From Erysipelotrichaceae bacterium (GTDB taxonomy: Bacteria > Bacillota_I > Bacilli_A > ML615J-28 > CAG-313), in the NCBI GenBank assembly GCA_015059015.1, contig SVBG01000002.1:49636-113635 (forward strand): a stretch of 64,000 bases of DNA. Reading direction: 5' to 3'. A program made the translations under genes and the position numbers. How positions within the stretch are numbered: position 1 is the stretch's first letter; each line of letters starts with the position of its first letter. The notes beneath the pieces are model-generated. The model was given only the letters and a program-made list of their open reading frames with translations, did no database searches and was not told the origin of the DNA. Below, one piece after another: positions 5,873-64,000 of the stretch.

Positions 5873-5897
5873 TTTGATTATAATATATGTATAATTT

Positions 5898-6065
5898 TAG
5901 GTCTTTAGCGATAAAGATAATAAGGAACCAAGTGAAAGTCTTGGACTGTCCCAGCAACTGTAATAAAAGACGAACGTTAAATACCATTGAGAATATGTAC
6001 AAATATATTTTTGAGAAGGTGACTAGTAGGATGAAGTTTAAGTCAGGAGACTTGCCTAAAATGTA
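5898..6065 (+). promoter_or_regulatory. Cobalamin (B12) riboswitch
   Basis: Conserved core GGAACCAAGTGAAAGTCTTGGACTGTCCCAGCAACTGTAA matches the cobalamin aptamer consensus (GGGAA..GGTGAAA.TCC...CCCGCAACTGTAA). A B12-box-like AAGTCAGGAGACTTGCC is present. It sits in a 320-nt leader ahead of a DUF4430/CbrT-like pair. Confidence 0.7.
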
Positions 6066-6141
6066 AATAAATAGGAGGAATATTTGATATATAACTAAAC
6101 TGCTCGGGGTTCGGTGAAGTATATAGAAAATAAAAAAATTA

Positions 6142-51649: not shown

Positions 51650-52723
51650 ATGGCAAATGTAAAAGTAGCGATCAATGGATTTGGTCGTATTGGTCGTTTA
51701 GCATTCAGACAAATGTTTGGTGCAGAAGGTTACGAAATCGTAGCAATCAATGACTTAACTAGTCCTAAAATGCTTGCAAACTTATTAAAGTATGACACTG
51801 CACAAGGTGGTTATGCTGGATTTATCGGACAAAACTTACACACAGTTGAATCAAAAGAACCTGTATTTGCTGAAGACGGCAAAACTGTAGTTACTCCTGG
51901 TTCAATCACTGTTGATGGAAAAGAAATTACAATCTATGCTGAACCTAAAGCTCAAAATTTACCTTGGGGTGAATTAGATGTAGATGTAGTATTAGAATGT
52001 ACTGGTTTCTATTGTTCAAAAGAAAAATCACAAGCACACATCGATGCTGGTGCTAAAAAAGTAGTTATCTCTGCTCCTGCTGGAAATGATTTACCAACAG
52101 TTGTTTATGGTGTTAACGAAAATATCTTAACTAAAGAAGACAAAATTATCTCTGCTGCTTCTTGTACAACTAACTGTTTAGCTCCTATGGCTAAAGCTTT
52201 AAATGATTTCGCTGAAATTCAATCAGGTATCATGGCTACTATCCATGCTTATACTGGTGACCAAATGATTCTTGATGGACCACACAGAAAAGGTGATTTA
52301 AGAAGAGCTCGTGCTGGTGCTGCTAACATCGTTCCTAACTCAACAGGTGCTGCTAAAGCAATCGGTTTAGTTATTCCAGAACTTAATGGTAAATTAATCG
52401 GTGCTGCACAACGTGTTCCAGTTCCTACAGGTTCAACAACTATTTTAACAGCTGTTGTTAAAGGTGAAAATATTACTAAAGAAGCTATCAACGCTGCTAT
52501 GAAAGCTGCTGCTAGCGAATCTTATGGTTATAATGAAGATCAAATCGTTTCTTCAGACGTAATCGGTATGAGATATGGTTCATTATTTGATGCAACTCAA
52601 ACTATGGTTGCTAAAGTTGGTGAAGGTTTATATCAAGTTCAAGTTGTTTCTTGGTATGATAATGAAAACTCATATACTAGCCAAATGGTTAGAACAATCA
52701 AATACTTTGCAGAAAAATGCTAA
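51650..52723 (+). CDS. gap: Glyceraldehyde-3-phosphate dehydrogenase
   Basis: NGFGRIGR Rossmann fold and SCTTNCLAP active site. 357 aa. AGGAGG RBS. Confidence 0.9.
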
Positions 52724-52730
52724 TTAAAAA

Positions 52731-52765
52731 CTAAACATCTATAGAGAAATCTATAGATGTTTTTT
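52731..52765 (+). terminator. Intrinsic terminator of gap
   Basis: ACATCTATAG-agaaat-CTATAGATGT followed by TTTTTTTT. Confidence 0.75.
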
Positions 52766-52786
52766 TTAAAAAGTTTCATGCAACTA

Positions 52787-52815
52787 TTTACAAATGAATA
52801 AATATATGCTATACT
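52787..52815 (+). promoter_or_regulatory. sigma-A promoter TTTACA-N17-TATACT (cassette copy 1)
   Basis: Hexamers and spacing read directly. Conserved in all four cassettes. Confidence 0.6.
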
Positions 52816-52821
52816 ATAGGT

Positions 52822-52915
52822 GAAGTAATTTGTTTCACTCGTATGAAACTCTTCTTCATTGTTGTAGAAAAGTCCCTTTTATTGAAAAAACTGTTGGAAG
52901 AGGGACTTTTTATAT
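52822..52915 (+). ncRNA. Putative ~90-nt antisense sRNA (type I antitoxin-like), copy 1
   Basis: Predicted from the promoter +1 to the intrinsic terminator GAAAAGTCCC...GGGACTTTTTAT(52868-52915). Contains a GTGAA..TTCAC hairpin and ACTCTTCTTC. Overlaps the 3' end and terminator of the convergent peptide mRNA. Confidence 0.4.
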
Positions 52916-52916
52916 T

Positions 52917-53015
52917 CTACTTCTTTTTGTTCTTTTTTATGGAACTAAGAAGTTTAATCGTTGTGCTTATTAAACTGATTACTTCAGTAATAAGCTTGAT
53001 TATATTAATAAACAT
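52917..53015 (-). CDS. Putative type I toxin-like small membrane peptide, 32 aa (MFINIIKLITEVISLISTTIKLLSSIKKNKKK)
   Basis: ORF conserved in frame across the three cassettes despite nucleotide and amino-acid substitutions. Hydrophobic/amphipathic helix with a Lys-rich tail. Weak RBS GAAAGG lies inside a conserved hairpin (53017-53041). Below the 60-aa ORF-track cutoff. Confidence 0.45.
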   Translation of the reverse strand: MFINIIKLITEVISLISTTIKLLSSIKKNKKK

Positions 53016-53306
53016 TGCTTCTTACCTTTCTTAGGAGAAGCACATTTTTTTATTAATAAGAAATATAATAGTATCATGTGTTATTCTCCTTTCTCATATC
53101 CCCTTCAAATGAGATAAAGAAGAAGAGTACACATCCCCTTGTAGTATAAATAATACTGTATACGAGAGAATCAAATCACCTCATATATATATTTAGCAAA
53201 ACTACCCTAAATTGCTTTTTTTATTTTAAAAAAGTTTTCGACAATAATTAAATGTTAATTAATATATATGTCAGTTAGACAGATAAATTTCTATAGTGTA
53301 TTATCA

Positions 53307-53334
53307 CGGTATCGGAATGGTACCGTTTTTTTTA
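53307..53334 (+). terminator. Hairpin CGGTATCGGAATGGTACCG plus T-run; same element recurs at 58808-58833 (island boundary repeat)
   Basis: Preceded ~60 nt upstream by a promoter-like TTCGACA-N17-AATATA, so it may delimit a ~60-nt transcript. Confidence 0.45.
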
Positions 53335-53345
53335 TTTTTAAAAAA

Positions 53346-53360
53346 GGACAAGTTTTGTCC
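53346..53360. promoter_or_regulatory. Perfect inverted repeat GGACAAgttTTGTCC next to candidate promoter TTGATT-N17-TAAAAT (53368-53396) of the XRE gene; candidate operator
   Basis: Palindrome read directly. A related GGAC-aaaagac-GTCC lies at 53771-53786 ahead of the 719-aa gene. Confidence 0.35.
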
Positions 53361-53530
53361 GAATACTTGATTAAATTAATAATATATGATAAAATAAACC
53401 TATCCATTCGAAATGGTACTAATATCAAAAAATAATATAGAGAAAACTTTTAATAGTTTGTATAAACAATTCAAAAGAATTGTTCAAGAAAACATTTTAT
53501 TTTGAAATGGGTTTGTAAGGAGGTATTAGT

Positions 53531-53743
53531 ATGAATGGATTAATTAACCCTATCACGATTGCTGAAAACATTAAAAAATTGAGACTTTTAAAACAACTAA
53601 CACAAGTAGAAATGGCCGATACATTAGGATATAGTGAAAGAACTATTCGTAGACTAGAAACTAATGGGACATATGACTTATTTGTTGTTAATTTAATTGC
53701 TCAAACTTTTAACGTTTCAGTAGTCAGCATCCTATTTAATTAG
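53531..53743 (+). CDS. XRE-family helix-turn-helix transcriptional regulator, 70 aa
   Basis: AAGGAGG RBS. HTH reads IKKLRLLKQLTQVEMADTLGYSERTIRRLE. Confidence 0.7.
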   Translation: MNGLINPITIAENIKKLRLLKQLTQVEMADTLGYSERTIRRLETNGTYDLFVVNLIAQTFNVSVVSILFN

Positions 53744-53846
53744 GGTGCATTTTTTTATTTTCTTAATATAGGACAAAAGACGTCCTAACACCTTTAAACA
53801 TTTTTGTGATATACTTTTAGTGTGGAAAAATAAAGGTGGTGAAAAT

Positions 53847-56006
53847 ATGAACAATAGATTAGAAAAACATCTTGCGAATAAAGGCTTTTTAGTTATTAGA
53901 CTTAAAGAAGATTTCGATATTGAAAATATATCAAGTGACCATAAAGAAGATTTAATTAATCATATGTTAGTTTCATTCTTAAGTTTAGGATTTAAGTTAG
54001 AAGCAAGTTCAATAGAATTATTAAAAGGATTAGATTTAAAAAATTTAAAGAAGTTCTATTTAAATACTTTTGATTTACTTAAAAACATAAAAGGTGCTCA
54101 TGTAAAACATAAAATATTTTATAGTGATTTCCCAAATATGAAATCATATAAAGATTATGATTATTTTATTAATGCGTTACTACATTATAGTACTGCTAGT
54201 ACTGATGATTATGGATATATGCCATCTGAAAAAAATAATGTTACAAAATATTATTTTGATCAAAATAAAAAACTTACAGAAGTTAAAATACTACAATATG
54301 AAGAGGCTATTAAATATCTATCTACTTATTTTACAACCATGTTAGAAGGTACTAAAGTAATATCATATGAAAATCTAGAATTATTAAAAGCTTTCATGAA
54401 TGATTATCCAGATAAAGTAAAACCTAATATTATTCCATTTAGATGTAATATGGCTTCGTATATCGGTATATATATTGAACGTATGAGAAAAAAGAAAATC
54501 GGAGAAGTATTAGAAAATTTAGATTTATCATTTATTAAAACTTCAACGGATGTATTAAGACTTTATGCGGTAATATCAAAACAAAATGTTGAATTACAAG
54601 ATAAAGTTAAGTTTATAAGTTTAGATAGAAAAGCACGAAAAATTATTCTTAAAATTCTAAATGATATTTCATTAACTAACAAATTTATTATTGATGATTT
54701 AGTAAGTCATGAATTTCTTTGGAAAAGAGCATTTGAATATTTACATGTAGGTGAGTATAAAGAAATATACCCTGAAATATATGATGTTGCAAATAAACTA
54801 AGAAGTGGCGAATATCAAACTTATAATTCTGAATTAACTAAATGTTTAGAAGAAGGCAGTGCTAAAGCTTTTAAACTTTTAATGATTAAACCTGGAATAT
54901 TTGCACGTAAACTTGATTATATCTTACGAAGTAAAAAAATTTCTCATCAAGAAACATTAGAATACTTTAAAAAGTGCTCTAGTGATATATCTACTAATGT
55001 TCTATTAAGTTTATTACAACATTTTAAAAATCGATCTAATACATCACTAACAAGAACAATTATGTACCATAAACCTCATAGTTTTGTTTGTTTAGATATT
55101 GCTGATGAAAGAGATGAAATACCTAGTAATATTTTAGAAGTAGTTATTAATACAATAGAAGAAATATTACAAGATAAATTTATCTCTTATCCATTATTAG
55201 AAAATGTTTACTTAGATGAATGTATGAATAATTATATGATTCCTATTAACAATAAAAATGCTTCAAGTGGTTTTCATACTTTATCGTTTGGATCTAAAAT
55301 AAAACTTAATAGTGACAAAAATATTTTAAGATTCTTTACACATTGGAAAAATAGCCATTTAAGAATTGATATAGATTTATCTGCAGAGCTTTTCAATAGT
55401 GATTTTGAATACATAAATTCATTAGCATGGCATAATATGAAAGGAGGAGAAGACATTGATGCTTATCACTCAGGTGATATTGTAACTGCTCCTAATGGTG
55501 CAAGTGAATTTATTGATATAAACCTTGCTAAAGCAAAAAAGAAGAAAATTAAATATATCGTTATAGCTAATTCAGTATTTACTAATGATAATTTTAAAGA
55601 AATTCCTGAATGCTTTACAGGTGTAATGTTTAAAGATAAAATTAATAAAGATGAACAAGTATTTAATGCACAAGATGTTGAAATAAAAATAGATTTAACA
55701 CAAGATAATACAAATGAATGTTTAGCCTTTTTAGTTGATATCGAAAATATGGAATTAATCTGGTTAGACATCCCGTCATATGAAGAAAATTACTTTGTTG
55801 TAGCAGCAAATGATTACTCATATATATCTGCAGTAATTAAAAAAGCTACATCATATAATATATCAATATATGATTTAGTAAAACTTCATAAAAAACATAT
55901 TTCATTTAATGATAATAAAGATGAAGCATTATTAATTATTGATGATAGCGATAACTCTTTAATAAATCCATACAATCTAGAATTAATTTCTAAAGATTGG
56001 TTATAA
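53847..56006 (+). CDS. Hypothetical protein, 719 aa; no recognisable catalytic or NTP-binding motifs
   Basis: GGTGGTG RBS ahead of the ATG at 53847 (the track's 53820 start is a GTG). Soluble, Lys/Asp-rich. No Walker A/B, HEPN, PD-(D/E)xK or HNH motifs recognised by eye. Confidence 0.65.
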   Translation: MNNRLEKHLANKGFLVIRLKEDFDIENISSDHKEDLINHMLVSFLSLGFKLEASSIELLKGLDLKNLKKFYLNTFDLLKNIKGAHVKHKIFYSDFPNMKSYKDYDYFINALLHYSTASTDDYGYMPSEKNNVTKYYFDQNKKLTEVKILQYEEAIKYLSTYFTTMLEGTKVISYENLELLKAFMNDYPDKVKPNIIPFRCNMASYIGIYIERMRKKKIGEVLENLDLSFIKTSTDVLRLYAVISKQNVELQDKVKFISLDRKARKIILKILNDISLTNKFIIDDLVSHEFLWKRAFEYLHVGEYKEIYPEIYDVANKLRSGEYQTYNSELTKCLEEGSAKAFKLLMIKPGIFARKLDYILRSKKISHQETLEYFKKCSSDISTNVLLSLLQHFKNRSNTSLTRTIMYHKPHSFVCLDIADERDEIPSNILEVVINTIEEILQDKFISYPLLENVYLDECMNNYMIPINNKNASSGFHTLSFGSKIKLNSDKNILRFFTHWKNSHLRIDIDLSAELFNSDFEYINSLAWHNMKGGEDIDAYHSGDIVTAPNGASEFIDINLAKAKKKKIKYIVIANSVFTNDNFKEIPECFTGVMFKDKINKDEQVFNAQDVEIKIDLTQDNTNECLAFLVDIENMELIWLDIPSYEENYFVVAANDYSYISAVIKKATSYNISIYDLVKLHKKHISFNDNKDEALLIIDDSDNSLINPYNLELISKDWL

Positions 56007-56215
56007 GAAATATATCGGCTTATAATAACTTACTTCTATTAATTGAAACAAGAAAATTATAGTTAGTTATTAACTACCCGATTAAATAAGGCTTATGTTT
56101 ACTTACTTCTAAAGCTTTTTATTAATATGTGTTTTAGTAAACAACTTTCCTTATTTTCAAAAAAATTTAATAATTTACTATTTACAAATAGAAATTAATA
56201 TGTTATACTATAAGC

Positions 56216-56312
56216 GAAGTAATTCGTTTCACTCGTATGAAACTCTTCTTCGTTTAGTAGAAAAGTCCCTTTTTTATAAAATTTGGTTTCTAGAGGGACT
56301 TTTTATATTCTA
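56216..56312 (+). ncRNA. Putative antisense sRNA, copy 2
   Basis: As for copy 1. Confidence 0.4.
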
Positions 56313-56408
56313 CTTTTTTTTGTTCTTTTTTATAGAACTTATAAAAGTTGTCATCGCACTTATTAATCTGAATAATTCAGTAATAAACTTGATTATACTA
56401 ATAAACAT
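56310..56408 (-). CDS. Putative type I toxin-like peptide, 32 aa (MFISIIKFITELFRLISAMTTFISSIKKNKKK)
   Basis: In-frame paralog of 52917-53015. Same RBS-in-hairpin arrangement. Confidence 0.45.
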   Translation of the reverse strand: MFISIIKFITELFRLISAMTTFISSIKKNKKK

Positions 56409-56744
56409 TGCTTCTTCCTTTCTTAGGAGAAGCACCTTTTTTTATTAATAAGAAATATAATAGTTTCAAGTGTTTTCTCCTTTCTCATATCCCCTTCAAA
56501 TGAGATAAAGAAGAAGAGTACACATCCCCTTGTAGTATATATAATACTGTATACGAGCAAACCAAATCACTTCATATACATATTTAGCAAAACTATCCAA
56601 AATTGCTCTTTTTATTTTAAAAAAGTTTTCGACACGAATTAAAGTTGATGTGATTGTAGTTGATTGATAACAATATTTAAAATGTAAAATATCTACTTAA
56701 TAAAAATAAGTAGAAGTATAAACTACTTCTACTCATTTTTATAA

Positions 56745-57791
56745 TTATTCATCAATAAATTTTTGTAAATCTTTTATATATAGATTATATAATCCATATA
56801 CTAATTGTTGTTGTTTAATTGCATTATTAGATTGTATAATATCTGTTCCAATTAAGAAAGGAACACCTAAAGCGATTTCGGCTATTGATTTAATATTAAA
56901 TTTAAAATTAGACTTGTTCTTAAATTTTTCGGAAACATTCAAGTTTATTAATTCTTCGTAGAATTTTTCATAATCATTTTTATTTTTTAATTGATTATAA
57001 TCAACTTCAATTTGTGCAATATTATTATTCCAACCATATCTTACTCCATATTTATTAAAGATAATATGATTTGTTGTTAACTTAGAAATGTGATTTACAT
57101 CACCAAGAATTAATATTTTATAATCATTTGAGATGTTATTAAAAAGTTTTTCCCAAGCTTGATTATTAATTATAATAGGTTGTACAGTATTATCACGAGT
57201 ACCAACTATTTCTTTATCGTTTTTATCATCATTTGTAATAATTAAATTTTCTAATTCTTTTCCTATTGAAATATTTTTAGTTACAATAATTAATTTTGAA
57301 ACATCATCACCTAAATTATCTAGGATTTCTTTTTCCATTGAAACTTTTTCTAATTCATTTGTATATTTGTTATTAATATTTTTTCCCAATATATGAATTG
57401 GATCTACGACTGCTCCTAATTGCATAAAAAAATTAAATGTTTTTGGTGGTAATTTAGATACAATTACACCTGCAAAATAAAAACAAGGATGACATTTTCC
57501 TAATATCATTAATAGTTTTTTAATTAATTCTCTTGCTAAATTAGGATCTTTTTCATATAGATTAAAGATATCAATAATTTTTAGTAAATCATTACACTTT
57601 TTAATACTATTAATTTTCGAACCATTTAAACTCAAAAGATTATTAATATCATTAATCTCTTGCTGTTCTAATTCATAATTATTTAATTCACTAATAATAA
57701 AATTAAAACATGCAGCAATATCTTGTTCATTAAATTTATCTATTTTACTTACATCTATTTTAGCCCAATTTGTTTCAATAATGTTACTCAT
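56745..57791 (-). CDS. Hypothetical protein, 348 aa; no recognisable motifs
   Basis: AGGAGA RBS. Own strong promoter TTGAAA-N17-TATAAT on the minus strand (57811-57839). Terminator AGTAGAAGTAGTTTATACTTCTACT lies just downstream on the minus strand. Confidence 0.65.
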   Translation of the reverse strand: MSNIIETNWAKIDVSKIDKFNEQDIAACFNFIISELNNYELEQQEINDINNLLSLNGSKINSIKKCNDLLKIIDIFNLYEKDPNLARELIKKLLMILGKCHPCFYFAGVIVSKLPPKTFNFFMQLGAVVDPIHILGKNINNKYTNELEKVSMEKEILDNLGDDVSKLIIVTKNISIGKELENLIITNDDKNDKEIVGTRDNTVQPIIINNQAWEKLFNNISNDYKILILGDVNHISKLTTNHIIFNKYGVRYGWNNNIAQIEVDYNQLKNKNDYEKFYEELINLNVSEKFKNKSNFKFNIKSIAEIALGVPFLIGTDIIQSNNAIKQQQLVYGLYNLYIKDLQKFIDE

Positions 57792-57810
57792 AGTATTCTC
57801 CTTTTTTTAC

Positions 57811-57839
57811 ATTATATAATAAAATATTTTAAATTTCAA
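57811..57839 (-). promoter_or_regulatory. Near-consensus promoter (TTGAAA-N17-TATAAT) of the 348-aa gene
   Basis: Read on the reverse complement. Confidence 0.55.
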
Positions 57840-57911
57840 TTAATTATATAATCATGACAAAATTTTTAATTTAATATTTACAAAAAGAAATTAATATGAT
57901 ATACTATAAGC

Positions 57912-58000
57912 GAAGTAATTCGTTTCACTTGTATGAAACTCTTCTTCATTTAGTAGAAAAGTCCCTTTTAAAATAATTAGCTGGTTAGAGGGGCTTTTTA
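57912..58000 (+). ncRNA. Putative antisense sRNA, copy 3
   Basis: As for copy 1. Confidence 0.4.
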
Positions 58001-58004
58001 TATT

Positions 58005-58103
58005 CTACTTTTTTTTGTTCTTTTTTATAGAACTTATAAAAGTTATCATCGCACTTATTAATCTGAATACTTCAGTAATAAACTTGATTATACTAATAAA
58101 CAT
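58005..58103 (-). CDS. Putative type I toxin-like peptide, 32 aa (MFISIIKFITEVFRLISAMITFISSIKKNKKK)
   Basis: In-frame paralog of the other two. Confidence 0.45.
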   Translation of the reverse strand: MFISIIKFITEVFRLISAMITFISSIKKNKKK

Positions 58104-58369
58104 TGCTTCTTCCTTTCTTAGGAGAAGCACCTTTTTTTATTAATAAGAAATATAATAGTTTCAAGTGTTTTCTCCTTTCTCATATCCCCTTCAAATGAGA
58201 TAAAGAAGAAGAGTACACATCCCCTTGTAGTATATATAATACTGTATACGAGCAAACCAAATCACTTCATATACATATTTAGCAAAACTATCCAAAATTG
58301 CTCTTTTTATTTAAAAAAAATTTTTGGGTAACTATTTACAAATAAATAAATTTATGTTATACTATTAGT

Positions 58370-58448
58370 AGAAGCAGATTGTTTTCAAACTAAAACTCTT
58401 CTTCTAAAAGAAAAGTCCTTTTCGGGTGTGGACTTAGTTTATTTTCTA
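58370..58448 (+). ncRNA. Putative antisense sRNA of the 4th cassette
   Basis: Runs from the promoter to the shared bidirectional hairpin and T-rich tract. Confidence 0.35.
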
Positions 58449-58576
58449 TTTCTTAAAATGATTTTTAAGAAATTAATGATAGCGGTAATTAGGTTTATAA
58501 TTGCCGCTATTAAACTTATTTTCATAAATCTAACCAATCTCCATTTATTTGGAGGTTTATCATTATCAATGGTCAT
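58439..58576 (-). CDS. Small tail-anchored membrane peptide, 45 aa (MTIDNDKPPNKWRLVRFMKISLIAAIINLITAIINFLKIILRNRK); putative type I toxin variant
   Basis: Strong RBS GAGGAGGTG 8 nt upstream of the ATG at 58576 (the track's 71-aa version starts further upstream without an RBS). One TM helix plus a basic C-terminus. Its 5'-UTR is homologous to that of the 32-aa peptide genes. Confidence 0.5.
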   Translation of the reverse strand: MTIDNDKPPNKWRLVRFMKISLIAAIINLITAIINFLKIILRNRK

Positions 58577-58807
58577 ATGCATCACCTCCTCTAGTATTGA
58601 AGAAGAGTAAACATATCCCCTACACCATCGCTTGAAGTTGCAATCTACTTCCATATATATAATTAGTACAAAGTATTTAAATTGCTCTTTTTATTTAAAA
58701 AAAGTTTTCGACAATAATCGAATATTAATAAATTTGTTGACTCTTATAATTAAATAGTATATAATATAATTGTTAGTTAGACAGATACATTTCTAGAGTG
58801 TATCAAC

Positions 58808-58833
58808 CCGGTATCGGAATGGTACCGGTTTTT
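58808..58833 (+). terminator. Hairpin CCGGTATCGGAATGGTACCGG plus T-run (right-hand copy of the island-boundary element)
   Basis: Same sequence as 53307-53325. Preceded by the same GTTAGACAGATA..TTTCTA.AGTGTAT leader. Confidence 0.45.
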
Positions 58834-58913
58834 ATTTTATATTTAAAAAAATAATTAATTTAACTCAAATTCTTCCATTATATGGTATAATAAATATAGA
58901 TTAGAGGTATAAT

Positions 58914-59576
58914 ATGAAAATAGAGAATAAAGAAATTAAAGGTATTATATTTGATATAGATGGCACACTTATTGATTCTTGTGGAATTTGGGGAGAAGTT
59001 GATATTAGATTCTTCGCAAAAAGAAACATGGAAATACCAAAAGATTATCAAGAAGCAATCGGTCATATAGGACTTGATAAAGCAGCTGATTATACGATTA
59101 ATAGATTTAATCTAAATGAGAAAAAAGAAGATATAATTAAAGAATGGAAAGATGGAGTTTTAGAACTATATGCAAATGAAGTAGTTTTAAAACCTCATGT
59201 TAAAGATTTTTTATTGTTATTAAAAGAACAGAATATTCCATTTTGTGCAGCTACCGCAAATGATGAAGATTGCTATAAAAAGTGTTTAGAAAGAAATGGT
59301 ATCTTTGATTTGTTTGATTTTATTTTAGAAGTTAATCATTTTAAAGATGGTAAAGATAAACCAACAATATATATAGAAGCAGCTAAAAAGTTAGGTGTAG
59401 AAATAGAAAAATGTGTTGTATTTGAAGATTTATTAATGGCACTTAATACTGCTTGCAAAGCTGGATTTGTTACTTGTGCTGTATATGATGCAACTTGTAA
59501 AGAAGAAAGTGGAAAAAAAGAAGTAGCTGATTTTTATATTAAAGATTATCAAGAAATTATTGATAAAATTAATTAA
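58914..59576 (+). CDS. HAD-superfamily hydrolase (beta-phosphoglucomutase-like subfamily IA)
   Basis: Motif I IFDIDGTLIDS. 220 aa. Confidence 0.75.
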   Translation: MKIENKEIKGIIFDIDGTLIDSCGIWGEVDIRFFAKRNMEIPKDYQEAIGHIGLDKAADYTINRFNLNEKKEDIIKEWKDGVLELYANEVVLKPHVKDFLLLLKEQNIPFCAATANDEDCYKKCLERNGIFDLFDFILEVNHFKDGKDKPTIYIEAAKKLGVEIEKCVVFEDLLMALNTACKAGFVTCAVYDATCKEESGKKEVADFYIKDYQEIIDKIN

Positions 59577-63049: not shown

Positions 63050-64000
63050 ATGGAAAAATTAAAATATAAAATAATTATAATATTTATTACTGTTTTATGT
63101 ATTTTAAGTGGGTGTAAGAAAAATAATCAACAAGAAAATATATGTTTAGTAACTTTTGATTCTTGTAATGAGACAGAAAATTATAGTGTTCAAGTAGAAA
63201 AAGGAAATAATGTTTCAGAACCCAATGATCCAATTCGTAATGGTTATAAGTTTTTAGGTTGGTATTATCAAGATAAATATTGGAGTTTTATAGGGAACCC
63301 CGTTACAGAAAATATAACATTAACTGCCAAATGGGAAACGATAGAATATAGTATAAAATATGAAAATATAGAAGATTCAACAAATCCTAATCCCAATTTT
63401 TATAATTTAGAAATTGATGAAATAATATTAAATGAACCAATTCGTGATGGTTATGAGTTTTTGGGTTGGTATTATCAAGATGAATTATATAAAAGTATAG
63501 ATTGTTCACTTTTAAAAGATATAACATTAACTGCCAAATGGGAAACGATAGAATATAGTATAAAATATGAAAATATAGAAGATTCAACAAATCCTAATCC
63601 CAATTCTTATAATTTAGAAATTGATGAAATAATATTAAATGAACCAATTCGTGATGGTTATGAGTTTTTGGGTTGGTATTATCAAGATGAATTATATAAA
63701 AGTATAGATTGTTCACTTTTAAAAGATATAACATTAACTGCCAAATGGAATATTGCTGAATATGATATATATTATGAAAATTTATATGGTTCACCAAATT
63801 CGAATCCTTCTTCATTTAATATAGAAACTGAAACTTTTACATTAGAAAATCCAGTACATAAATATTATGAATTTATTGGATGGACATATGAAGGTCAAGA
63901 TACTCCTATAAAAAATGTTGAAGTTAGTAAAGGAAGTCTTGGTGATAAAGTATTTAAGGCTAATTGGCTAAATGTTAGGTTTGAAATAATTGACAATGAA
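63050..64000 (+). CDS. Lipoprotein with Listeria-Bacteroides-type repeats (3' end beyond window)
   Basis: Signal peptide plus lipobox LSGC. Repeated GY.FLGWYYQD...LTAKWE modules. Open to the window end. Confidence 0.7.
   Translation, partial: MEKLKYKIIIIFITVLCILSGCKKNNQQENICLVTFDSCNETENYSVQVEKGNNVSEPNDPIRNGYKFLGWYYQDKYWSFIGNPVTENITLTAKWETIEYSIKYENIEDSTNPNPNFYNLEIDEIILNEPIRDGYEFLGWYYQDELYKSIDCSLLKDITLTAKWETIEYSIKYENIEDSTNPNPNSYNLEIDEIILNEPIRDGYEFLGWYYQDELYKSIDCSLLKDITLTAKWNIAEYDIYYENLYGSPNSNPSSFNIETETFTLENPVHKYYEFIGWTYEGQDTPIKNVEVSKGSLGDKVFKANWLNVRFEIIDNE
63313..63748 (+). repeat. Near-perfect 207-bp (69-codon) in-frame tandem duplication, 2 full units plus a partial third
   Basis: Units starting at 63321 and 63528 differ at one base (TTT/TCT). 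Confirmed by the identical spurious minus-strand ORFs at 63387-63590 and 63594-63815 in the ORF track. Confidence 0.9.

Follow-up and report, generated by a model that had tools for sequence, protein, structure and literature searches.

Chromosomal cassettes in uncultured gut bacteria that look like a previously undescribed RNA-controlled type I toxin–antitoxin family

One layout is reported for all Gram-positive type I toxin–antitoxin (TA) loci, with a peptide gene and a convergent sRNA sharing a bidirectional terminator (PMC4147584, PMC7472228), and type I loci are characteristically duplicated in tandem (PMC2887945). RatA triggers decay through duplex formation, and SR4 strengthens an SD-sequestering stem at a distance (PMC4147584). 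In S. aureus, sprG1/SprF1 yields peptides of 31 and 44 aa from two in-frame starts and has a 3′-overlapping antisense RNA (PMC10579593, PMC4147584). Type I toxins of C. difficile are 30–56 aa long, hydrophobic in their N-terminal portion and rich in lysine at the C-terminus (PMC6563280). Here we describe repeated cassettes that look like a previously undescribed RNA-controlled type I TA family, of this familiar kind, in uncultured gut bacteria.

The stretch of DNA analysed (64,000 nucleotides; the window) contains four copies of a ∼450-bp module: three close cassettes, c1 (52770–53262), c2 (56164–56653) and c3 (57860–58330), with a mutual identity of 88–96%, and a divergent one, c4 (58320–58732). 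The pattern AAACTCTTCTTC-N(1-14)-AGAAAAGTCC matches four times in the window versus 0.00 times expected (100 shuffles), and the repeats described in an earlier note on this DNA are real. Every cassette has a near-consensus plus-strand promoter, a predicted hairpin RNA of ∼75–95 nt, a bidirectional terminator and a convergent minus-strand peptide ORF. The note's count of four cassettes holds for this layout, which c4 shares, but not for the product, since c4 encodes a different peptide with a 28-aa core, not the 32-aa type. Clustering of copies within 6 kb, which the note called unusual, is ordinary for type I loci given their tandem duplication. Nor are the cassettes tied to an island that they were said to surround: a syntenic relative (L022) has a single cassette and no island, and other copies lie at unrelated loci. 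The plus-strand ORFs, which the note called spurious, lack conservation: the frame has 63 aa in c1 and 82 aa in c2 and is broken in c3.

About 35 related cassettes were found in gut-sample sequences of related, uncultured Bacillota with low GC content. We gathered 26 distinct cassettes from the window and 14 loci and added two further lineages. Several chromosomal hot spots host these cassettes, often as tandem arrays, and single MAGs carry several copies; two lineages have orphan sRNA copies with the toxin ORF deleted. Most copies occupy core chromosomal intergenic gaps, not mobile elements, most lie outside prophages, and none adjoins a CRISPR array. Searches against Pfam, NCBIfam, Rfam, PDB, PHROG and phage and plasmid collections gave no match, and tblastn with the peptide gave none at E<=10 in 50,697 phage and 72,556 plasmid records. 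No cassette copies were found in plasmids, phages, viral contigs or mobile-element collections.

Every copy also carries a 10-nt inverted repeat, ACTCTTCTTC...GAAGAAGAGT, whose arms lie ∼270 bp apart and have changed in concert in one lineage. Together with the multi-copy, often tandem occurrence, this would suit an inert or selfish MITE-like element bounded by the repeat and devoid of coding function, a reading that we consider very improbable. Conservation overshoots the repeat, running ∼60 bp to its left and ∼100 bp to its right, and hence it is the entire ∼450-bp cassette that has been duplicated. Purifying selection acts on the internal ORF, and the cassettes keep their promoter hexamers, their SDs and start codons of three kinds. 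The loci examined showed no transposase, no target duplications were noted, and mobile-element collections, as stated, hold no copies.

The three 32-aa ORFs, all on the minus strand and all in frame, read exactly as the earlier note had quoted them: MFINIIKLITEVISLISTTIKLLSSIKKNKKK in c1 (52917–53015), MFISIIKFITELFRLISAMTTFISSIKKNKKK in c2 (56310–56408) and MFISIIKFITEVFRLISAMITFISSIKKNKKK in c3 (58005–58103). In the c4 peptide ORF (58439–58582, minus strand), a 28-aa core, MKISLIAAIINLITAIINFLKIILRNRK (58439–58525), is fused to an N-terminal extension; the product has 45 aa if read from 58576 and 47 aa if read from 58582, and P0004 is identical. For the 31–33-codon peptide frame, pN/pS is 0.29, the lowest of the six frames, which indicates purifying selection, and frameshifts or stops, named in the note as evidence against its reading, are absent from nearly all cassettes collected. 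The peptides have a net charge of +5 to +7 and a hydrophobic moment of 0.29–0.60, with all polar residues on one helical face, and are amphipathic rather than plainly transmembrane. Their likeness to type I toxins extends to small size, positive charge and a Lys-rich tail, but not to the Fst signature (conserved W, PxxxG), which they lack; the suggested profile comparison with validated toxin families returned no match. No sigma-70-like minus-strand promoter for the toxin was found in the window copies; L024 alone has TTGCTT-17-TATAAT at the homologous place.

These properties bear on whether the peptide is a toxin at all. It could instead be a small membrane or secreted peptide outside any addiction or toxin module, its expression merely tuned by the sRNA: a leaderless cationic bacteriocin-like peptide, a PSM/delta-lysin-like cytolysin or a stress-induced membrane modulator. 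Strong amphipathicity and charge (μH 0.45–0.60, +6) would suit such roles, exceeding in the same calculation the values for what we take to be the Fst and PepA1 sequences, as would the lack of homology to validated toxins and the core chromosomal setting away from plasmids, phages and viral contigs. However, no transporter, immunity or processing genes adjoin any copy, every copy combines a predicted double translational lock with a strong antisense promoter of its own (see below), as is typical of self-toxic peptides, and orphan sRNAs fit loss of a toxin with retention of its antitoxin. We therefore regard this reading as improbable. S. aureus type I toxins are self-toxic and cytolytic alike (PMC10579593, PMC12414873), so the TA and cytolysin-type readings overlap.

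In all four window copies, the sRNA promoter is TTTACA-17-TATACT with a TG extension (10/12 match to consensus), the sigma-A-like promoter that had been proposed. It lies on the plus strand at 52787–52815 in c1 (TTTACA-17-(TGC)TATACT), 56181–56209 in c2, 57877–57905 in c3 and 58335–58363 in c4. Identity across cassettes is 1.00 at the −35 and 0.91 at the −10 hexamer, with the −35 invariant in 17/17 c1/L7-like cassettes. The predicted plus-strand sRNAs span 52822–52914 in c1 (∼92 nt between putative start and 3′ end), 56216–56307 in c2, 57912–58002 in c3 and 58370–58445 in c4. Their folds have z scores of −3.4, −3.9 and −3.1 for c1, c2 and c3 (0/200 shuffles as good) and of only −0.7 for c4. 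In c1, a 5′ domain (GAAG:CUUC enclosing GUUUC:GAAAC) precedes the bidirectional terminator AGAAAAGTCCC...GGGACTTTTT (52866–52911); the terminators of c2 and c3 lie at 56259–56304 and 57955–57999, and c4 has a short one, AAGTCC..GGACTT (58409–58445). Terminator arms are 0.92–0.99 identical and the loop 0.61; a consensus scan missed those of c1–c3 because their loops exceed 8 nt. An invariant A tract, AGAAAAG, is the source of the minus-strand U tract (U4CU in window copies, U7 in L033). In the sRNA alignment, 97.6% of cells are paired (36–60% in slid controls), with compensatory changes at two pairs. These data support, in silico, the claim of an sRNA that shares an intrinsic terminator with a convergent peptide gene.

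The sRNA contains a CU motif, AAACUCUUCUUC in c1 (52846–52857; identity 1.00), found at 56240–56251 in c2, 57936–57947 in c3 and 58393–58404 in c4 and largely paired within the RNA's own predicted fold. Pairing of this segment with the cognate toxin TIR has a predicted ΔG of −12 to −14 kcal/mol in c2/L005/L7/L030-type copies, better than 88–100% of 33 real window TIRs. Pairing is weak in c1 (−6.5 kcal/mol), where 76% of control TIRs outperform the cognate one, and duplexes of the sRNA 5′ domain with the whole mRNA were no better than shuffles.

On the mRNA side, the earlier note overlooked a conserved leader ORF, which opens from a strong SD (AAGGAG/GGAGG), 7–9 nt from an ATG, TTG or GTG, in 24/24 fully analysed cassettes. 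In c1 (53000–53077, minus strand; ATG, 25 codons; SD region GAGAAAGGAGAA, 53084–53095), it is out of frame with the toxin and stops 16 nt beyond the toxin's ATG; in c2 (56398–56469, minus strand; TTG, 23 codons; SD 56475–56486), it stops 11 nt past. The c3 leader region (58093–58181, minus strand) comprises a TTG-initiated ORF (58093–58164) and its SD (58170–58181). Seven of the 24 leaders are fused in frame to the toxin, including that of c4, where the strong SD is GAGGAGGUG (58583–58592, minus strand). Leader stops fall at +4, +8, +11 or +16 past the toxin ATG, or at −16 within the hairpin arm (L022), and several copies show an ATGA stop–start overlap. All three frame relations between leader and toxin occur, the unfused upstream frame being a separate, non-conserved leader.

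Unfused leaders run into a hairpin predicted to hide the toxin SD. The note had placed the GAAAGG site inside a hairpin, and the SD sits in the 3′ arm in every window copy (c1, 53016–53042; c2, 56409–56434; c3, 58104–58129; all minus strand); the internal hairpin of c4, CCUCCA..UGGAG, lies at 58539–58555 (minus strand). Because a T run follows it, the c2 hairpin also scores as a plus-strand terminator. The hairpin is predicted in 20/20 distinct variants from five different sequence classes, with compensation exemplified by GCUUCUCC/GGAAGAAGC versus GCUCCUCC/GGAGGAGC. In lineage L033-36 the leader has only 3 codons, so leader–toxin coupling would not be universal.

Further upstream, the 5′-UTR motif ACUCUUCUUC is predicted to fold onto the leader SD and start codon. 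On the minus strand, it lies at 53119–53134 in c1 (mRNA ..AUGUGUACUCUUCUUC), 56510–56520 in c2, 58205–58215 in c3 and 58599–58609 in c4. Conserved sequence continues upstream, to 56617 in c2 and 58312 in c3; the c1 portion (53135–53226) has a 5′ hairpin, a conserved A/T block and a AAATTGCT block, and that of c4 (58610–58696) a hairpin, GAAGU..ACUUC, and the AAATTGCT block. In the MFE fold of every type, the leader SD is the partner of the CU motif. The consensus helix has 19 bp and is 98.4% paired (44–68% in slid controls), with two compensatory pairs (CG:6/UA:3/UG:1; GC:9/AU:1). Direct reading of the sequences shows an invariant U-G pair in this helix, and the 5′ hairpins of L7, L033 and L024 contain G-U pairs; both fit the minus strand only. 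The covariation comes from a small number of independent events, and the sequences are closely related.

The earlier note instead proposed a hok/fbi-like fold-back. For this to be the main lock, the toxin mRNA would read through the shared terminator, and its 3′ tail GAAGAAGAGU, antisense of the sRNA motif, would pair with the 5′-UTR motif in an inert full-length form whose processing or decay the fully complementary sRNA controls. The complementarity exists, as a perfect 10 nt in all copies by construction, growing to 12 nt in L033 and 14/15 nt in c2 on direct reading. However, the conserved motif is an inverted repeat, so that sRNA and 5′ UTR carry identical rather than complementary copies, and a fold-back would therefore need read-through: the complement, GAAGAAGAGT, lies 7–9 nt past the minus-strand U tract of the intrinsic terminator. 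Read-through transcripts of five types and of L033 are predicted to fold with the 5′-UTR motif on the leader SD, not on the tail, and terminal motif positions vary uncompensated in L010b and L031. In the divergent lineage L033-36, both motif copies have exchanged C for A at one shared position, which is bulged out of the cis helix. The leader lock leaves this change unexplained, and under fold-back it is compensatory (C-G to A-U); elsewhere in the motif, the variants G (L037) and U (L031) would leave room for wobble pairing. This is a single independent concerted event, and DNA-level correction of an inverted repeat could also yield it. It keeps fold-back alive as a minority reading, which we consider unlikely.

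We think that each cassette is probably a chromosomal type I TA-like module, a model built from sequence anatomy, conservation, frame selection and predicted folds, with transcription, toxicity and neutralisation all inferred. The minus strand would give a ∼300-nt mRNA for a cationic amphipathic peptide of 28–33 aa that ends in a Lys-rich tail and presumably damages membranes. Two cis locks, a double arrangement that the note had missed, would keep this mRNA untranslatable: the pyrimidine tract (..AUGUGUACUCUUCUUC..) folded locally onto the leader SD and start codon, and the hairpin that holds the toxin SD in its 3′ arm. Because the leader ORF contains the 5′ arm, toxin synthesis would require ribosomes to translate through the leader and open the hairpin. 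Such coupling would be hok/mok-like, and fused copies would, like sprG1, produce two peptides, one long and one short. The plus strand, from its near-consensus extended −10 promoter, would supply an abundant ∼75–95-nt sRNA that is a perfect antisense of the mRNA terminator hairpin (∼45 nt; a par/RatA/SR4-like 3′ overlap). Loop–loop contact there could lead to a duplex and then to decay, a stabilised locked fold or both. The CU motif of the sRNA may also occupy an SD, that of the toxin in c2/c3/L5/L7-type copies and that of the leader in c4/L024-type copies.

Among described systems, par (fst) RNA I/RNA II of E. faecalis pAD1 and SprA1/SprA1AS of S. aureus share with the cassettes convergent promoters, a bidirectional terminator as antisense contact, an intramolecular stem hiding the toxin SD, a structured mRNA 5′ end, a peptide of ∼30 aa whose C-terminus is charged and an antitoxin RNA that is short and strongly promoted (PMC7472228). 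Unlike the Fst/Ldr family, the cassette peptides have no conserved W, no P/D/S/TxxxG(C) motif and no Pfam/NCBIfam/PDB match. The direct repeats DRa/DRb, which make the par RNAs complementary at the TIR, are replaced by an inverted-repeat motif, and par lacks a leader ORF. As in bsrG/SR4 and txpA/RatA of Bacillus subtilis, convergent overlap is at the 3′ end only (PMC4147584), but it covers only the ∼45-nt terminator versus 75–120 nt there; the cassettes add a leader ORF and twin CU motif, lie mostly outside prophages and show no sequence similarity. C. difficile CD0956.2-RCd10, CD2517.1-RCd8 and their phage homologues likewise have antisense RNAs that converge and overlap with the toxin transcript, and a genome holds many paralogous copies (PMC6563280); the cassettes differ in not flanking CRISPR arrays and in having no phage or plasmid match. 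Fused cassettes resemble sprG1 in giving 52 and 32 aa (45–47 and 28 aa in c4), although most cassettes have a separate leader and sequence similarity is absent. With hok/mok/sok of plasmid R1, the cassettes share an apparent dependence of toxin translation on an overlapping upstream ORF, an mRNA folded inert and possible 5′–3′ complementarity (PMC4147584). They differ in an antisense RNA convergent at the 3′ end, not over the leader TIR, in a fold-back element past the terminator, in a leader frame that is not fixed, in a Gram-positive-type host and in lacking Hok homology. As judged from sequence, the family appears par-like in layout and hok/mok-like in leader coupling.

Four cassettes of ~450 bp lie in the window, each with a predicted plus-strand sRNA gene and, convergent to it, a minus-strand ORF for a putative toxin peptide. 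Three are close copies with 88-96% identity to one another, at 52770-53262 (c1), 56164-56653 (c2) and 57860-58330 (c3); a divergent fourth (c4, 58320-58732) comes directly after c3. The pattern AAACTCTTCTTC-N(1-14)-AGAAAAGTCC occurs 4 times in the window, compared to 0.00 expected from shuffles. In all four cassettes, the sRNA promoter is TTTACA-17-TATACT with TG ahead of the -10 element, followed by a stretch of 75-95 nt which folds as a 5' domain and a long GC-cored hairpin, and then by a T run. Fold z scores are -3.4 for c1, -3.9 for c2, -3.1 for c3 and -0.7 for c4. Identity, pattern count, promoters and folds thus agree with the earlier note, which had described repeated cassettes with a common layout, and the three 32-codon minus-strand ORFs match the sequences quoted there exactly. 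Plus-strand ORFs of the supplied track, regarded there as spurious, indeed differ between copies; those of 63 and 82 aa were rejected as genes, as they show no conservation among copies. A 6-codon sRNA ORF (MKLFFV), which has no SD and is missing from c4 and from the related locus L024, was also rejected.

On the toxin strand, a consensus scan and a by-eye check of all cassette types revealed no consensus promoter in the window copies, and the minus strand of the conserved A/T block contains no conserved TAnnnT hexamer. Sigma-B-like and sporulation-sigma-like candidates were dropped because they are not conserved. In L024, TTGCTT-17-TATAAT occupies the place homologous to the toxin promoter, upstream of the 5' hairpin, an element seen in every cassette type, each time with a different sequence. 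Between the GAPDH gene and c1 there is a perfect 13-bp bidirectional terminator (52733-52762), which would end read-through of the c1 toxin strand ~100 nt beyond the terminator shared by the two convergent genes.

The peptide has a core of 28-33 aa and a KKNKKK/RNRK tail. It is amphipathic, with a net charge of +5 to +7, polar residues all on one helical face, and a 19-residue KD mean of 1.4-2.3; the hydrophobic moment is 0.45-0.60 in c1-like peptides and 0.29 in the more hydrophobic c4 core. In size, membrane-type character and charged C-terminus, these peptides agree with the definition of type I toxins (<60 aa, hydrophobic or membrane-type, charged C-terminus; PMC6563280). For twelve distinct copies of the c1/L7-like type, pS is 0.385 and pN 0.114 in the peptide frame. 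The ratio of 0.29 is the lowest of the six frames, compared to 0.40 for the mirror antisense frame and at least 0.8 for all remaining frames. A check of homologous cassettes for frameshifts and stops, as proposed in the earlier note, showed the 32-codon frame to be unbroken in nearly all copies, with C-terminal damage in L005, L012 and L010c. Loss of the toxin ORF with retention of the sRNA was found in two different lineages, where orphan copies (L007_1190, at ~1040-1230 of L007; L037_1379; L038_791) keep promoter, sRNA and terminator, the toxin ORF being deleted. L001 is the converse: its cassette (at 424) keeps the toxin ORF and the leader ORF upstream of it, and the 5' UTR with its pyrimidine motif (CU motif) is replaced by unrelated sequence.

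Profile searches of the peptides against Pfam, NCBIfam, PHROGs, PADLOC and PDB yielded no family: there was none at E<=1 in Pfam or NCBIfam, and the family profile matched no chain of the PDB at E<=10. A DUF5316 match of the c4 peptide (E 0.0026) was below the cut-off and set aside; apart from it, no family fell below E = 0.01 in Pfam, NCBIfam or PHROG.

Across 17 copies of the c1/L7-like type, the best conserved parts of the sRNA unit are the -35 box and the CU motif (1.00 each), together with the arms of the terminator (0.92-0.99), whereas its loop (0.61) and the spacer of the promoter (0.67) vary most. The consensus fold, which is 97.6% paired and includes two compensatory pairs, joins 5' GAAG with CUUC of the CU motif, and GUUUC with GAAAC. 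Ahead of the terminator stem is an invariant A tract, equivalent to a U tract for minus-strand termination. These features fit a bidirectional terminator shared by both genes, as predicted in the earlier note and as known for par (PMC7472228). If both RNAs end there, they would overlap in a ~45-nt hairpin only, and this would be the guaranteed interaction between them. By analogy with RatA and SR4, antitoxins that act through decay and/or reinforcement of SD masking (PMC4147584), such an overlap would promote decay and/or strengthen SD masking. The hairpin containing the toxin SD, with its T run, also scores as a terminator on the plus strand, and hence the sRNA may also exist in a longer form that is antisense to the entire ORF. 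Rfam 15 gave nothing relevant, either at the gathering score or at E<=10; for 52600-59000, there were only chance-level miRNA/STnc230 matches (E>0.6).

Two features of the minus strand escaped the earlier note, a leader ORF and a predicted double lock. In 24 of 24 fully analysed cassettes, a short ORF upstream of the toxin gene has a strong SD (AAGGAG or GGAGG) and, 7-9 nt away at a homologous position, an ATG, TTG or GTG start codon. In unfused copies, the leader stop follows the toxin ATG by 4 (ATGA overlap), 8, 11 or 16 nt; in L022, it falls within the toxin-SD hairpin, in the 5' arm. Leader and toxin are fused in frame in 7 of the 24 copies, including c4, with products of 45-54 aa. All three leader/toxin frame relations are found and the leader peptide sequence is not conserved; what would be conserved is translation through the leader stretch. 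In the L033-36 lineage, analysed apart from the 24 cassettes, the leader is truncated to three codons (MFY-stop), and therefore leader coupling is not universal. The leader ORF contains a minus-strand A run (53043-53056, 56435-56448 and 58130-58143) of 6 to 8 nt among copies. Depending on A-run length and on nearby 1-nt indels, leader and toxin are either separate or joined in one frame, and slippage at the run could switch the product between a short and a long peptide.

The toxin SD always resides in the 3' arm of a hairpin, of which there are five sequence classes with compensatory differences. In the MFE fold of every type, the leader SD pairs with a pyrimidine tract farther upstream that contains ACUCUUCUUC. 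For ten c1-like sequences, this 5' lock is a consensus 19-bp composite helix that also covers the leader start codon (AUGUGU:ACACAU) and is 98.4% paired, compared to 44-68% in slid controls. Two of its pairs are compensatory (CG:6/UA:3/UG:1 and GC:9/AU:1); here as in the sRNA, the covariation counts derive from a small number of events, and the sequences are related. Both this helix and the 5' hairpins specific to each type contain G-U pairs that are compatible with the minus strand only. The toxin mRNA is predicted to be silenced twice, with leader SD and toxin SD both masked, and the toxin SD would be freed only through ribosomes translating the leader.

A second contact between the RNAs may form between the sRNA segment CUUCUUC(N)UUU and the SD region of the toxin mRNA. 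In c2, c3, L005, L7 and L030-type copies, its complement is found in the toxin SD region, and the dG values there, -10 to -14 kcal/mol, beat 88-100% of 33 genuine translation initiation regions of the window. Through a CT-rich direct repeat, 10-12 bp can form at the toxin SD in c2/L005/L7-type copies, though not in c1, where the sRNA has no noteworthy complementarity to the SD; in c4 and L024-type copies, the sRNA segment is complementary to the leader SD. The sRNA 5' domain, when compared with the whole mRNA (RNAduplex), performed no better than shuffled sRNA, and this comparison was left out of the evidence.

The CU motif is present once in the sRNA and once in the 5' UTR of the toxin mRNA. 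Both copies have the same sequence in the RNA sense and are thus an inverted repeat in the DNA (a MITE reading of which was rejected). Because they are the same, they cannot pair with each other. The earlier note had envisaged a hok/fbi-like fold-back between the 5' and 3' ends of the toxin mRNA. The complement of the sRNA motif starts 7-9 nt after the U tract and enters the toxin transcript only upon read-through of the shared terminator, and the 5'-UTR motif remains on the leader SD in unconstrained folds of such transcripts. On this evidence, for which only the partner lists of unconstrained MFE folds were taken into account on the folding side, the hok/fbi analogy is not the best reading.

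A further clue comes from L033-36, the only clearly divergent lineage, in which an identical C-to-A substitution, at one and the same site, has turned both motif copies into ACUAUUCUUC. The changed base is a bulge in the L033 cis helix, and hence the SD lock does not account for the two motifs being alike. This concerted change, a single event, speaks for a direct link between the copies. One explanation would be the fold-back in read-through mRNA, the transcript that contains the complement and in whose MFE folds it goes unused. Concerted change of the inverted repeat at the DNA level is another, and the copies may also share a common partner, or the sRNA may mimic the cis element. As an account of the antitoxin, mimicry strikes us as rather unlikely. 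The sRNA, which carries an exact copy of the mRNA anti-SD, would substitute for a 5' lock that has been opened or removed on the leader or toxin SD, docking via the shared terminator, and selection would hold the copies identical. If true, mimicry and hok/mok-type leader coupling within a par-type convergent module would be a regulatory logic not known from any type I system.

Cassettes of this kind are narrowly distributed. When 185,579 species genomes were scanned for the sRNA pattern, only four records proved to contain true cassettes, three 'Bacilli bacterium' MAGs (goat caecum, water-deer rectum and SGB_438) and one 'Candidatus Scatovivens sp.' MAG, with GC contents of 26-29%. In metagenomes, the same pattern found two true, more distant copies (L022 and L024); 7 further matches, in high-GC contigs, were false. 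A protein search (5.8 billion clusters; 1.84 billion representatives) matched only ~10 clusters, comprising in-frame fused forms of 51-59 aa and one 32-aa form. All come from uncultured gut and rumen Bacillota, and their contigs supplied additional cassettes. The window is identical to part of L026, a 313-kb JGI metagenome contig. Phage and plasmid collections gave no blastn or tblastn match and viral contigs no pattern match, so the cassettes are not obviously phage- or plasmid-borne.

Certain chromosomal sites recur: the gap between the GAPDH and HAD hydrolase genes (window, L001, L010, L011, L016, L022, L027), the neighbourhood of a peptidase M42 gene (L004, L012, L031) or of a giant membrane protein gene (L005, L030), and the interval between C_GCAxxG and GGDEF-EAL genes (L033-36). 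Tandem arrays are seen in L007, L010, L016 and L037, with at least 8 copies in one MAG and 4 in the window. The earlier note considered such clustering unusual; lineage-specific duplication and tandem intergenic copies are in fact a hallmark of type I loci (PMC2887945). In L022 and L016, the GAPDH-HAD gap has one or two cassettes and no island, which indicates that the 5.5-kb insert of the window is a later addition and that the cassettes are not an island property.

The insert between the window cassettes (53531-57791) encodes an XRE-type HTH protein (53531-53743), a protein of 719-728 aa (53820-56006) with matches to NF041916 (RING_SCO0854 family, 1e-76) and phrog_33734 (8e-51), both below cutoff, and, on the minus strand, a 348-aa protein of no family (56745-57791). 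Neither of the large ORFs had a PADLOC match. Copies of a second sRNA-like unit, D6, bracket the insert, directly right of c1 (53244-53336) and c4 (58746-58838). These are 84% identical, with fold z scores of -1.6 (copy 1) and -4.2 (copy 2), and D6 also occurs in L010 and L027. The unit has two hairpins, a T run and its own promoter (TTGACT-17-TATAAT, 58737-58765). No target was found for D6, and its complementarity to the cassette RNAs is no better than chance, which led us to reject it as a second antitoxin. Elsewhere in the window are a cobalamin riboswitch (5882-6073, plus strand; RF00174, 93 bits) and, at 63309-63929, three to four tandem 207-bp repeats in a surface-protein-like gene, the first two 99% identical; the product of the adjoining gene carries Flg_new repeats in L026.

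Type I TA families are hard to find, as their peptides fall under annotation cut-offs and their antitoxins are RNAs. The present one is not detected by Pfam, NCBIfam, Rfam or PHROGs. We think it probable, by a modest margin, that the cassettes are a type I TA-like module, with transcription, toxicity and neutralisation all predicted from sequence; we hold the detailed mechanism with less confidence. Three known silencing devices would be combined in one ~450-bp unit, namely an antisense RNA that overlaps at the 3' end, a hairpin that masks the SD, and coupling to a leader ORF, and the twin CU motif adds a feature open to compensatory mutagenesis. In low-GC hosts, the cassette could be of use for counter-selection or containment, a role in which C. 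difficile modules have reportedly been employed (title of bioRxiv 10.1101/2020.03.04.976019). For the field, the gain is incremental and not one of principle, except if mimicry turns out to be the right reading.

Sequence and signature comparisons with the named families (par/Fst, hok/mok, TxpA/BsrG, SprG and the C. difficile toxins) placed the cassettes in none of them. In the Fst/Ldr signature, a Trp that separates the TM helix from the charged tail is conserved, and a P/D/S/TxxxG(C) motif is present (PMC7472228). Peptides of c1-c3 contain no W, P or G, and hence lack this signature; the motif is found in no member of the cassette family. Of the Fst/TxpA/PepA1-type character ascribed to the peptide in the earlier note, the KKNKKK tail stands, whereas profile comparison gave no membership in Fst/Ldr or TxpA/BsrG. 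No similarity to the TxpA/BsrG, SprG or C. difficile peptide families was seen, nor any phage or plasmid tblastn match, and Pfam gave no match of the peptide to Hok. Regulation also differs: the hok/sok antisense RNA acts at the 5' leader TIR, with a 3' fbi fold-back, whereas the cassette sRNA is encoded at the 3' end. In par, direct DNA repeats (DRa and DRb) make the sRNA complementary to the toxin TIR; among the cassettes, c2/L005/L7-type copies have the CT-rich direct repeat described above and c1 does not, and the motif pair under strict conservation is an inverted one. In layout (convergent genes, 3' overlap, masked SD), the cassettes resemble par/Fst, SprA1, txpA/RatA and bsrG/SR4, and the par-type arrangement with a shared bidirectional terminator is present on the sRNA promoter side, a toxin promoter not having been found. 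Hok translation requires the overlapping leader ORF mok; in 24 of 24 fully analysed cassettes, the leader extends to the region of the toxin start or is continuous with the toxin ORF, and the translational logic, in which the toxin would be reached via leader translation, would be alike (PMC4147584). Fused copies are reminiscent of sprG1, where two in-frame starts yield two peptides (PMC10579593), and the peptides are similar in style to the Lys-tailed toxins of C. difficile (PMC6563280). We classify the cassettes as a new, narrowly distributed type I TA-like family, in which a par-type shared terminator is found together with a twin CU motif and with a toxin ORF that is predicted to be coupled to a leader and masked twice.
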